Assembly: GCF_024298765.1 (NCBI RefSeq)
Contig: NZ_CP101210.1
Strand: one strand, 5' to 3'
Source: Escherichia coli
Lineage (GTDB): Bacteria; Pseudomonadota; Gammaproteobacteria; Enterobacterales; Enterobacteriaceae
DNA length: 64,000 nt
Shown: positions 1 to 60,950 of the stretch, one piece after another
Numbering within the stretch: the stretch's first letter is position 1
How the letters are laid out: each line of letters begins with the position of its first letter
The notes under the pieces: generated by a model
The model's input: only the letters and a program-made list of their open reading frames with translations
Told to the model about the DNA's origin: nothing
The model's database searches: none
Made by a program: the position numbers and the translations under genes

Positions 1-1404
1 GTGTCACTTTCGCTTTGGCAGCAGTGTCTTGCCCGATTGCAGGATGAGTTACCAGCCACAGAATTCAGTATGTGGATACGCCCATTGCAGGCGGAACTGA
101 GCGATAACACGCTGGCCCTGTACGCGCCAAACCGTTTTGTCCTCGATTGGGTACGGGACAAGTACCTTAATAATATCAATGGACTGCTAACCAGTTTCTG
201 CGGAGCGGATGCCCCACAGCTGCGTTTTGAAGTCGGCACCAAACCGGTGACGCAAACGCCACAAGCGGCAGTGACGAGCAACGTCGCGGCCCCTGCACAG
301 GTGGCGCAAACGCAGCCGCAACGTGCTGCGCCTTCTACGCGCTCAGGTTGGGATAACGTCCCGGCCCCGGCAGAACCGACCTATCGTTCTAACGTAAACG
401 TCAAACACACGTTTGATAACTTCGTTGAAGGTAAATCTAACCAACTGGCGCGCGCGGCGGCTCGCCAGGTGGCAGATAACCCTGGCGGTGCCTATAACCC
501 GTTGTTCCTTTATGGCGGCACGGGTCTGGGTAAAACTCACCTGCTGCATGCGGTGGGTAACGGCATTATGGCGCGCAAGCCGAATGCCAAAGTGGTTTAT
601 ATGCACTCCGAGCGCTTTGTTCAGGACATGGTTAAAGCCCTGCAAAACAACGCGATCGAAGAGTTTAAACGCTACTACCGTTCCGTAGATGCACTGCTGA
701 TCGACGATATTCAGTTTTTTGCTAATAAAGAACGATCTCAGGAAGAGTTTTTCCACACCTTCAACGCCCTGTTGGAAGGTAACCAGCAGATCATTCTCAC
801 CTCGGATCGCTATCCGAAAGAGATCAATGGCGTTGAGGATCGTCTGAAATCCCGCTTCGGTTGGGGACTGACTGTGGCGATCGAACCGCCAGAGTTAGAA
901 ACCCGCGTGGCGATCCTGATGAAAAAGGCCGACGAAAACGACATTCGTTTGCCGGGCGAAGTGGCGTTCTTTATCGCCAAGCGTCTACGATCTAACGTAC
1001 GTGAGCTGGAAGGCGCGCTGAACCGCGTTATTGCTAACGCCAACTTTACCGGACGGGCGATCACCATCGACTTCGTGCGTGAGGCGCTGCGCGACTTGCT
1101 GGCATTGCAGGAAAAACTGGTCACCATCGACAATATTCAGAAGACGGTGGCGGAGTACTACAAGATCAAAGTCGCGGATCTCCTTTCCAAGCGTCGATCC
1201 CGCTCGGTGGCACGTCCGCGCCAGATGGCGATGGCGCTGGCGAAAGAGCTGACTAACCACAGTCTGCCGGAGATTGGCGATGCGTTTGGTGGTCGTGACC
1301 ACACGACGGTGCTTCATGCCTGCCGGAAGATCGAGCAGTTGCGTGAAGAGAGCCACGATATCAAAGAAGATTTCTCTAATTTAATCAGAACATTGTCATC
1401 GTAA
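1..1404 (+). CDS. dnaA: chromosomal replication initiator protein DnaA
   Basis: 467-aa ORF with GTG start; AAA+ Walker [11 protein letters not shown]; followed directly by dnaN-recF-gyrB. Confidence 0.97.
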
Positions 1405-6045: not shown

Positions 6046-6147
6046 TGCCTGATGCGCTACGCTTATCAGGCCTACGAGACTCCTGCAATATATTGAATTT
6101 GCATGTTTTTGTAGGCCGGATAAGGCGTTCACGCCGCATCCGGCAAG
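6046..6147. repeat. REP/BIME palindromic elements downstream of gyrB
   Basis: gcctgatgcgctacgcttatcaggcctac and gtaggccggataaggcgttcacgccgcatccggcaag match REP consensus. Confidence 0.6.
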
Positions 6148-16203: not shown

Positions 16204-16306
16204 TTACATCGTAGCCGATGAGGACGCGCCTGATGGGTGTTCTGGCTACCTGACCTGTCCATTGTGGAAGGTCTTAGATTCTCGCTGATTTCAGGAGCTA
16301 TTGATT

Positions 16307-16720
16307 ATGCGTAACTTTGATTTATCCCCGCTTTACCGTTCTGCTATTGGATTTGACCGTTTGTTTAACCACTTAGAAAACAACCAGAGCCAGAGTAATG
16401 GCGGCTACCCTCCGTATAACGTTGAACTGGTAGACGAAAACCATTACCGCATTGCTATCGCTGTGGCTGGTTTTGCTGAGAGCGAACTGGAAATTACCGC
16501 CCAGGATAATCTGCTGGTGGTGAAAGGTGCTCACGCCGACGAACAAAAAGAGCGCACCTATCTGTACCAGGGCATCGCTGAACGCAACTTTGAACGCAAA
16601 TTCCAGTTAGCTGAGAACATTCATGTTCGTGGTGCTAACCTGGTAAATGGTTTGCTGTATATCGATCTCGAACGCGTGATTCCGGAAGCGAAAAAACCGC
16701 GCCGTATCGAAATCAACTAA
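16307..16720 (+). CDS. ibpA: small heat-shock protein IbpA
   Basis: 137 aa starting [20 protein letters not shown]; alpha-crystallin domain. Confidence 0.95.
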
Positions 16721-24705: not shown

Positions 24706-25890
24706 TTAAACAGGCTGCCCCTGATGCGACATCCGCGTCGCCAGCGGTAGCCAGCACAGCACGATCAACAATCCCATTAAGGTCATCAACAATCCCAGGC
24801 TGCCCTGACCGGTTTGCGGCAACATCGCAGAGAGCGACGCCAGCACGCCGGAACCAATGTTTTGCAGACCGCCGACCAGCGCGCCAGCGGTGCCCGCCAG
24901 GAAGGGGAACGGCTCCATCGCGCCGCTGGTAGCCAGTGGAAACAGCATCCCGGCACCGAAAAAGAACAGCGCGGCGGGAATGAGCAGCGTCCAGACATTC
25001 ATCACGCCAAACCAGTCGGGGATCCACATCAGCAAGCCAGCCAGCAGGCAGCAGATAACCGACTGCCACATTAACGTGGAGAAGCGTTTATTGGGACGTC
25101 CGGCAAACCATGCGCCAAAAAACGCTGCCGGAATCGGCAGAATAAACAAAATACTGACCGTCATACTGCTCAACCCTAACACCGCGCCCATCAGCACGCC
25201 GGAGCAGGCTTCAAAGGCGGCAATCCCGGCCAGACCGCCAATCAGCATCAGCAAATAACAGTTAAAACCGCCGTTACCGAAAAGCGTTTTATAACTGGTA
25301 AGCAGGCGCGTGCGCGGTGCGTCGACCGGACGCGTTTCCGGCATCCAGCGGGCCATACTGAAGGTCACACCGGCACAAAGAACCAACAAAAAGAGATAAC
25401 AGGCGCGCCAGTTCCACATCGTATCCAGCAGACCGCCGATTAGCGGTGCGAGCAACGGACTGACAAGAATCCCCATGTTTAACAGGCTGTTAGCATGGCG
25501 CAACTGTGTCCGTTCATATAAATCACGCGGCAAAGTACGCGCCATTACGCCGCCAACGCCGGTGCCCATGCCCTGCATCGCGCTGGCGGCAATCAATACC
25601 GTCAAACTGGAGGTCGTGACCGCGACTAGCGTTGCCAGCATAAAAATGGACATTCCGACGAGGATCACCGGTCGGCGACCCACACGGTCGGAAATTGGGC
25701 CATAAAACAGCTGTGAGACACCGTAAGTCAGCAGATAAGCGCCCATTACGCTCTGCACCGCCCCTTCACGGACGTTGAGATCGCGCGCCATATCGGCAAT
25801 GGCTGGAATATAAATGGTTTGCGCCATCTGACCGACGGCCACGAGTAATACCAACATCAATAACAAATTGACGTTTCTATGCCTTTTCAT
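24706..25890 (-). CDS. emrD: multidrug efflux MFS transporter EmrD
   Basis: 394 aa from MKRHRNVNLLLMLVLLVAVGQ; 12-TM MFS. Confidence 0.92.
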   Translation of the reverse strand: MKRHRNVNLLLMLVLLVAVGQMAQTIYIPAIADMARDLNVREGAVQSVMGAYLLTYGVSQLFYGPISDRVGRRPVILVGMSIFMLATLVAVTTSSLTVLIAASAMQGMGTGVGGVMARTLPRDLYERTQLRHANSLLNMGILVSPLLAPLIGGLLDTMWNWRACYLFLLVLCAGVTFSMARWMPETRPVDAPRTRLLTSYKTLFGNGGFNCYLLMLIGGLAGIAAFEACSGVLMGAVLGLSSMTVSILFILPIPAAFFGAWFAGRPNKRFSTLMWQSVICCLLAGLLMWIPDWFGVMNVWTLLIPAALFFFGAGMLFPLATSGAMEPFPFLAGTAGALVGGLQNIGSGVLASLSAMLPQTGQGSLGLLMTLMGLLIVLCWLPLATRMSHQGQPV

Positions 25891-26169
25891 TATCACGGAT
25901 GCTTTTATAAAAATAATTAGAATAAGTCACTACGCATTCCCATAAATGCGGGAGAGGAATCTATCACATTGATAAATGTTAGCCAGATATACGCCAGGAA
26001 TGGGGAATTGTTTAGCGGCAGAATATGTAAACAAAAGCGGCAATAAATGTTGCCGGGAGAGATGGTAGGGCGGATAAGATGCGTCAGCATCGCATCCGAC
26101 ACCAACCCGCACGCTAAATATAAAAGGGGAGCGGTTACCCGCTCCCCTTTAGTGCGACTTGAATCTGAA

Positions 26170-26259
26170 TTACTTCAGGTATTTCAGAACAGCATCAAGC
26201 AGTTGCAGTGCTGCAACAATGAGTTTGAGGATAAGAATGGCGATATCCACCAGGCTCAT
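26170..26259 (-). CDS. tisB: type I toxin TisB (SOS-induced membrane peptide)
   Basis: 29-aa ORF MSLVDIAILILKLIVAALQLLDAVLKYLK on minus strand; between emrD and ivbL as in K-12. Confidence 0.85.
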   Translation of the reverse strand: MSLVDIAILILKLIVAALQLLDAVLKYLK

Positions 26260-26493
26260 ACGCGTCTCCTGTGGTTCAGGAGCACTGCCAGCTGACGTAC
26301 CTTTCCGCTGCCTGTTGCCAGCTGTTGTGCACGCGGTATCTCAAGGAGAAACGTTGTGCTTGTTGACATAACACAGTGTGCTCACGCGGGGTTAAGGCGC
26401 TGACGGCACCACCCGTTTCAGCCAGGACTTAGTGCGCCGGGTAACGATGCGGCCCCCGCATAACACATTGCGTACAGTGATATTATAGAAGTT

Positions 26494-26513
26494 TACTGTA
26501 TAAATAAACAGTA
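26494..26513. promoter_or_regulatory. LexA box (tisAB / istR-2 control)
   Basis: tactgtataaataaacagta fits CTGT-N8-ACAG. Confidence 0.7.
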
Positions 26514-26618
26514 ATATTGGACAAAACGCAAACTGTGATCGATACTCAACTATGCACTAAATACGTCAAAATTCGTGCCGAAATTGCGCGTTCTGCGCGG
26601 AACACGTATACTTTCAGT

Positions 26619-26693
26619 GTTGACATAATACAGTGTGCTTTGCGGTTACCAGCCGCAGGCGACTGACGAAACCTCGCTCCGGCGGGGTTTTTT
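26619..26693 (+). ncRNA. istR: IstR-1 antitoxin sRNA
   Basis: sigma-70 promoter TTGCGC-17nt-TATACT upstream; gttgacataatacagtgtgct complementary to tisAB leader at 26361-26381; terminator hairpin ccucgcuccggcgggg plus U-run. Confidence 0.65.
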
Positions 26694-26822
26694 GTTACCT
26701 GCAATTCAGTACAAAACGTGATCAACCCCTCAATTTTCCCTTGCTGAAAAATTTTCCATTGTCTCCCCTGTAAAGCTGTGCTTGTATAAATATTGTTAAA
26801 CACAAAACCAACAAGGTCCCCA

Positions 26823-59736: not shown

Positions 59737-60063
59737 ATGACTAAAAATACTCGTTTTTCCCCCGAAGTCCGTCAACGGGCAGTTCGTATGGTTCTGGAAA
59801 GTCAGGGCGAATATGACTCACAATGGGCGGCAATTTGTTCCATTGCTCCAAAGACTGGCTGTACGCCGGAGACTCTGCGTGTCTGGGTTCGCCAGTATGA
59901 GCGGGATACCGGGGGCGGAGATGGAGGGCTCACCAGTGCTGAACGTCAGCGTCTGAAAGAGCTGGAACGTGAAAATCGTGAACTGCGCCGCAGCAACAAT
60001 ATCCTTCGCCAGGCTTCCGCTTATTTTGCGAAGGCGGAGTTCGACCGCCTCTGGAAAAAGTGA
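59737..60063 (+). CDS. IS629 OrfA
   Basis: 108 aa [39 protein letters not shown]... Confidence 0.88.
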
Positions 60064-60950
60064 TGGCACTGCTGGATAAGCTGCGTGAGCAGTACGGGGT
60101 CAGACCGGTATGCAGTGAACTGCATATTGCCCCGTCAACGTATTACCACTGTCAGCAACAGCGACATCATCCTGATAAACGCAGTGCACATGCACAGCGC
60201 GATGACTGGCTGAAGAGAGAGATACAGCGCGTATACGATGAAAATCATCAGTGTACCGTGTGCGTAAAGTCTGGCGCCAGTTGTTACGGGAAGGAATCAG
60301 GATGGCCAGATGTACAGTGGTGCGCCTCATGGCGGTTATGGGACTTGCCGGTGTTCTCCGGGGTAAAAAGGTCCGCACTACCGTCAGCCGGAAAACCGTT
60401 GCCGCAGGTGACCGCGTAAACCGTCAGTTCGTGGCAGAACGTCCTGACCAGCTGTGGGTGGCTGATTTTACTTACGTCAGCACATGGCAGGGCTTCGTCT
60501 ATAGTGGCGTTCATCATTGATGTATTTGCCGGATATATCGTGGGGTGGTGGGTCTCATCGTCTATGGAAACGACATTCGTGCTGGATGCGCTGGAGCAGG
60601 CGTTGTGGGCCCGCCGTCCGTCCGGCACCATCCATCACAGCGATAAAGGCTCTCAGTATGTGTCACTGGCCTATATGGAGCGATTAAAAGAAGCAAAACT
60701 GCTGGCATCAACAGGGAGTACAGGCGACTCGTATGACAACGCGATGGCGGAGAGCATCAATGGTCTTTACAAAGCGGAGGTAATACACCGTAAGAGCTGG
60801 AAAAACCGTGCAGAAGTGGAACTGGCCACACTCACGTGGGTGGACTGGTATAACAATCGACGATTGCTGGGAAGGCTGGGCCATACTCCTCCGGCAGAAG
60901 CAGAAAAAGCTTATTATGCTTCCATCGGAAACAATGATCTGGCAGCCTGA
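60060..60950 (+). pseudogene. IS629 OrfB transposase, frameshifted
   Basis: DDE transposase sequence split over three overlapping frames (60060-60419, 60251-60520, 60504-60950). Confidence 0.8.

Follow-up and report, generated by a model that had tools for sequence, protein, structure and literature searches.

The locus described here occupies positions 26118-26693 of the window, by which we mean the whole 64,000-nt stretch of Escherichia coli DNA that was analysed, and is flanked on one side by emrD (24706-25890, minus strand) and ysdE and on the other by the ivbL leader and ilvB (plus strand, from 26823). The minus strand carries tisA and the toxin gene tisB, and the plus strand carries the RNAs IstR-1 and IstR-2. 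The same gene order, emrD-ysdE-tisB-istR-ivbL-ilvB, is common to the window and to E. coli K-12 MG1655, whose tisAB/istR-1 (IstR-1/IstR-2) locus is reportedly that of Vogel et al. 2004 and Darfeuille et al. 2007. In an alignment of 661 bp, 656 positions were identical to K-12 MG1655 (99.2% identity), and this, together with Rfam and Pfam matches above their cut-offs, upholds the identification as tisB/istR that had been proposed in an earlier sequence-only reading. The five differences comprise substitutions at 26137 and 26151, within or adjoining the tisAB terminator, one at 26255 in tisB, a single T fewer at 26517-26518 and a substitution at 26699, downstream of istR. The whole IstR-2 span (26554-26693, IstR-1 included), the 22-nt IstR-1 target, tisA, the LexA box, the promoter hexamers, the Shine-Dalgarno sequence and the chromosomal position are as in K-12. 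All published MG1655 elements used for comparison (Table 1 of PMC11264685) were found at the expected places, and transcript ends in this strain were placed from the promoter positions and the published lengths. The interval from emrD to the tisAB terminator holds ysdE, which encodes a small protein, at 25972-26046 on the plus strand, and after it a putative REP-like palindromic element recognised by eye (~26050-26112); a single REP has been described in this interval (PMC2577331).

The tisB coding sequence, encoding a 29-aa membrane toxin, lies at 26170-26259 on the minus strand, the strand given in the sequence-only reading, where both the open reading frame list and a match to the Pfam family TisB_toxin (PF13939; E = 2.1e-9, 37.6 bits where the cut-off is 25) locate it. 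The translated product, MSLVDIAILILKLIVAALQLLDAVLKYLK, is identical to K-12 TisB at 28 of 29 residues, and strain 2014C-3338, whose locus is identical, has the RefSeq protein WP_000060506.1, named tisB, at the corresponding position. The one differing residue is the second, which is Ser in the window (codon AGC, product beginning MSLVD) and Asn in K-12 (AAC, MNLVD, as the sequence-only reading had it and as comparison with the K-12 sequence confirmed), owing to a single C/T difference at 26255. This had been put forward as a possible strain difference; the difference is real, but it is not a peculiarity of this strain, as Ser2 is the published majority allele. By exact matches to 61-mers centred on the SNP, 3288 genomes carried the Ser2 form and 998 the Asn2 form of K-12 among 4358 complete E. 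coli genomes, and a published set of 2,212 genomes had Ser2 in 85% of loci, with Asn in the K-12 lineage and Ser in the B lineage (PMC11264685). Ser2 is thus a common natural variant, and it is K-12 that is atypical at residue 2. At the protein level the toxin of the window does not differ from the TisB-N2S consensus variant of Shore and Fozo (mSystems 2024, PMC11264685), which was toxic, somewhat more so than the Asn2 form at low induction, and left ciprofloxacin survival unaffected. As a possible route by which the Ser2 codon might act, we considered mRNA structure, since one extra base pair is predicted just after the AUG, with a fold more stable by 3.8 kcal/mol; this idea was dropped because it predicts lower translation, whereas the published toxicity of N2S is higher.

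The tisAB promoter was recognised by its published -10 hexamer TATAAT (26482-26487, minus strand; PMC11264685), and the transcription start was placed seven bases past it, at ~26476. An intrinsic terminator at 26118-26150 (minus strand) consists of a 12-bp stem (26123-26150), which stays perfect despite both substitutions relative to K-12, followed by a U-rich tail. The tisAB transcript has a published length of 359 nt (PMC2577331), and an RNA of that length starting from 26476 finishes at 26118, within the terminator U-tract. On this numbering the IstR-1 target falls at +95..+116, the tisA AUG at +108 and the tisB AUG at +218, and the placement of +1 is supported by the RNase III product of tisAB mRNA known as "+106" (PMC8145889), because that cleavage then lies within the IstR-1 duplex. 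The tisA reading frame (37 aa, 26256-26369, minus strand; in the open reading frame list and identical to K-12) holds the IstR-1 target and ends in a stop codon that overlaps the start of tisB (AUGA). It is reported not to be translated (PMC2826370, PMC11264685), with which the lack of any Pfam family match for its product is consistent.

The tisB Shine-Dalgarno sequence AGGAGA, the published ribosome binding site (PMC11264685), lies at 26265-26270 on the minus strand and was paired, in a CUCCUG/CAGGAG hairpin, in RNAfold predictions for the +1, +42 and +106 forms alike. In the predicted fold of the +1 form the 5' end (+4..+25) pairs with +86..+108, adjoining and overlapping the IstR-1 target, which lends some weak support to the published model, which has the standby site masked by the 5' end up to the point of processing to +42. 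The predicted accessibility of the target rose modestly between the two forms, from a mean unpaired probability of 0.38 (+1) to 0.49 (+42). Two further minus-strand segments of tisAB, described as antisense to uxaA (20 nt) and to dinD (16 nt) (PMC2577331), are intact here, at 26431-26450 and 26190-26205, respectively.

On the plus strand, the Rfam istR model (RF01400) matched 26564-26693 over its full length (1-130 of 130) with 150.1 bits, the gathering score being 45. Elsewhere in the window, matches above the gathering score were obtained for the AsdA antisense RNA within dnaA (511-591, minus strand), the ES036 sRNA downstream of gyrB (6068-6110, minus strand) and the ROSE_2 thermometer preceding ibpA (16241-16313, plus strand). 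IstR-2, an RNA of ~140 nt, contains the whole of IstR-1. Its span, supported by Rfam and the literature (PMC2826370), is 26554-26693 on the plus strand, with the 5' end placed from the -10 hexamer. IstR-1, the antitoxin RNA of ~75 nt, was assigned to 26619-26693 of the same strand from Rfam, from its fold, from the terminator scan and from its identity with K-12, its 5' end again being an estimate, and is composed of a 5' antisense segment reaching to 26639, an internal stem-loop, a terminator hairpin (26668-26691) and a U-run ending at 26693. For free IstR-1, the predicted minimum-energy fold contains the terminator hairpin and a single internal stem-loop and leaves no more than the first 12 nt, at the 5' end, single-stranded.

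Both istR promoters carry their published hexamers (PMC11264685). The constitutive istR-1 promoter has its -35 (TTGCGC) at 26584-26589 and its -10 (TATACT) at 26607-26612, and the istR-2 promoter has its -35 (TGGACA) at 26518-26523 and its -10 (GATACT) at 26541-26546, all on the plus strand and with a 17-nt spacer in each case. Only the istR-2 promoter came from the consensus promoter scan, which reported neither the istR-1 nor the tisAB promoter, so that the published hexamers of these two were located directly; istR-1 was missed because its -35 matches the consensus at only 3 of 6 positions. With these hexamers present and a hairpin and U-run at 26668-26693, the view that IstR-1 has its own promoter and terminator on the plus strand holds.

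The element that would connect the two transcripts is a direct repeat. It had previously been read as a 21-nt segment duplicated with one mismatch at 26361-26381 and 26619-26639; the duplication is genuine, but those intervals are one base out of register, and in register the repeat is 22 nt long, at 26361-26382 and 26618-26639. Its sequence is TGTTGACATAA[C/T]ACAGTGTGCT, the single mismatch being C at 26372 vs. T at 26629. The 22-nt istR-complementary sequence published for tisAB, AGCACACTGTGTTATGTCAACA (PMC2577331), is the exact reverse complement of 26361-26382, and the earlier proposal that the first copy is the target of IstR-1 in tisAB mRNA (26361-26382, minus strand) is thereby substantiated. 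Counted from the tisB AUG, this target is 102-123 nt upstream and falls within the region of the standby ribosome. The repeat core recurs a third time in partial form (CATAACACATTG, matching at 11 of 12 positions) at 26459-26470, corresponding to ~+7..+18 of the tisAB mRNA; this copy may be due to chance.

Because the repeat mismatch sets G of the mRNA opposite U of IstR-1, forming a wobble pair, 22 uninterrupted pairs are possible. The predicted duplex of the two RNA segments, checked over the in-register 22 nt, has an energy of -35.1 kcal/mol with one G:U pair. When the IstR 22-mer was paired with the whole tisAB mRNA, the predicted energy was -36.3 kcal/mol, compared with -14.2 ± 2.2 kcal/mol for 1000 shuffled 22-mers, the best of which reached -22.7 kcal/mol. 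An unconstrained prediction for whole IstR-1 against whole tisAB mRNA returned a 70-nt "duplex" of -78 kcal/mol, which we regard as uninformative because intramolecular structure is ignored and shuffled sequences already reach -54 ± 4 kcal/mol. Keeping in mind that any sequence commonly contains short reading frames and short repeats in two copies, we considered that the repeat might have arisen by chance or through duplication by a mobile element, with no antisense role, and that the reading frame might be spurious. This is so improbable as to be negligible, as the repeat gives 2 matches in the window vs. 0.01 expected, its placement makes a plus-strand RNA complementary to a minus-strand mRNA, the Rfam and Pfam models both score above their curated cut-offs and the sequence is the experimentally characterised one (PMC2577331), and we regard it as refuted. 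The arrangement found is that of a type I toxin-antitoxin system, where the antitoxin RNA is divergent from the toxin gene, does not overlap it and is complementary to its mRNA ~100 nt upstream of the tisB start.

The locus is widespread in the species. A megablast search of 5426 complete E. coli genomes with 26100-26760 gave matches in 4360 of them, always on the chromosome and annotated as tisB, and RefSeq places a tisB annotation at the same position in thousands of E. coli genomes; the RefSeq records name tisB at the locus, and the istR RNAs, tisA and the LexA box are absent from them. Around 20% of the 5426 complete genomes compared gave no locus match, and some genomes keep only the ivbL-proximal 76 bp, in agreement with a published survey in which the locus was absent in 15% and interrupted in 3%. 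No second tis/istR copy was found in the 64-kb window.

With regard to the remainder of the window, identity to E. coli 2014C-3338 was 99.93% from dnaA (position 2) to 42880, beyond which the window departs from it and enters a genomic island running on past the window's end (64000), at a point where 2014C-3338 has rhuM and tRNA-Sec (selC); ARAGORN found no tRNA in the 64-kb window. The island carries cbtA/cbeA (a type IV toxin-antitoxin system), an antirestriction gene, DUF932, a GTPase, IS2 and the siderophore receptor gene ireA, along with copies of IS256 and IS3 that are both frameshifted, the IS3 having an ALIL pseudoknot at 60018-60134. The segment 42500-64000 is shared in full (100% coverage; identity 100.0% after rounding) with avian-pathogenic and poultry strains (APEC O78:H4 E12049, G12, 104) and, at the same coverage and rounded identity, with the wastewater strain STLEFF_47.

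Between tisAB and istR-2, at exactly the coordinates given in the sequence-only reading (26494-26513), lies the LexA operator TACTGTATAAATAAACAGTA, identical to that of K-12. It departs from the palindromic consensus at two positions and is the sole such site in the 64 kb, where shuffled sequences gave an expectation of 0; no further LexA boxes occur elsewhere in the window. In sequence, the operator and a separate istR-1 promoter are present in a form identical to the published elements, and LexA control of tisAB is documented (PMC11264685, PMC2826370, PMC8145889). Between the LexA box and the istR-2 -35, at 26517-26518, the window has one T fewer than K-12, and this deletion is the only uncommon feature of the locus. 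An exact 61-mer carrying it occurred in 76 of 4282 genomes, ~2% of locus carriers, and one carrying the K-12 form of the T-run region occurred in 3187 of 4289 genomes. The deletion lies outside all promoter hexamers, the LexA operator and the transcripts, and shortens the distance from the operator to the istR-2 -35 from 5 to 4 nt, so that the operator comes one base nearer to that -35 and the DNA upstream of the tisAB promoter is shifted. Its effect is probably nil. Some caution is in order because deleting the region of the istR-2 promoter reduced TisB-dependent persistence in K-12 (PMC2826370), and we consider it unlikely, while conceivable, that in this lineage the missing T measurably alters how tisAB or IstR-2 is induced by SOS.

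The same deletion bears on whether the locus might be a decayed, non-functional copy, inactivated by the N2S change, by loss of one nucleotide in the promoter region or by the changes in the terminator. Such a reading could draw on the five differences from K-12, one of them a rare indel (76/4282) in a shared regulatory region, and on the dispensability that follows from the absence of the locus in ~20% of E. coli genomes. We nevertheless hold it to be very improbable, given that the tisB reading frame is intact, that Ser2 is the majority form and was shown to be toxic (PMC11264685), that the missing T falls outside the promoter hexamers, the LexA box and every transcript, and that the 12-bp terminator stem is perfect despite two changes. 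Cumulatively, the sequence argues almost beyond doubt for a complete and apparently functional chromosomal E. coli tisAB/istR-1 type I toxin-antitoxin module, and no finding of the analysis spoke against this.

For the way in which this module would work, our own evidence consists of the identity of its elements with those of the K-12 locus and of the pairing potential; LexA control, processing, standby competition, RNase III cleavage and the action of TisB are taken from the literature (PMC8145889, PMC2826370, PMC11264685, PMC2577331). LexA bound at 26494-26513 would hold the minus-strand tisAB promoter shut until DNA damage elicits the SOS response. The 359-nt primary tisAB mRNA would be inert in translation, with its Shine-Dalgarno sequence in a hairpin and the standby site sequestered by the 5' end, and processing to the +42 form would open the standby site. 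IstR-1, made constitutively from its own plus-strand promoter, would pair through its 5' end with the 22 nt located ~100 nt upstream of the tisB AUG, which would block the loading of standby ribosomes (30S) and trigger RNase III cleavage to the inactive +106 form. When SOS-induced tisAB mRNA exceeded IstR-1, on prolonged induction, TisB would be expected to accumulate in the inner membrane, where it would collapse the proton motive force, lower ATP and promote or stabilise persister cells. Toxicity of TisB through membrane depolarisation and its repression by IstR-1 and RNase III are known both for K-12 and for the N2S variant (PMC11264685, PMC2826370, PMC8145889), while IstR-2 is under LexA control and is not considered a repressor of tisB (PMC11264685, PMC2826370, PMC2577331, PMC8145889).

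Other type I systems of E. coli that are SOS-linked or trans-encoded, dinQ/agrB, zorO/orzO and shoB/ohsC, resemble this one in having a small hydrophobic toxin, an inert primary transcript that is activated by 5' processing and a divergent sRNA whose pairing site lies at a long distance upstream of the start codon; they differ in their toxin families and sRNAs, and the locus matches the TisB and istR models specifically. From the K-12 MG1655 locus the present copy differs by Ser2 in place of Asn2, by the missing T and by the substitutions at 26137, 26151 and 26699. It is an already known and ordinary locus, nearly identical to the K-12 copy, and as such it does not change current knowledge, its value being one of annotation only. 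Among chromosomal type I toxin-antitoxin systems, the one to which it belongs, tisB/istR-1, is the best characterised, and through it membrane depolarisation and antibiotic persistence are tied to the SOS response.
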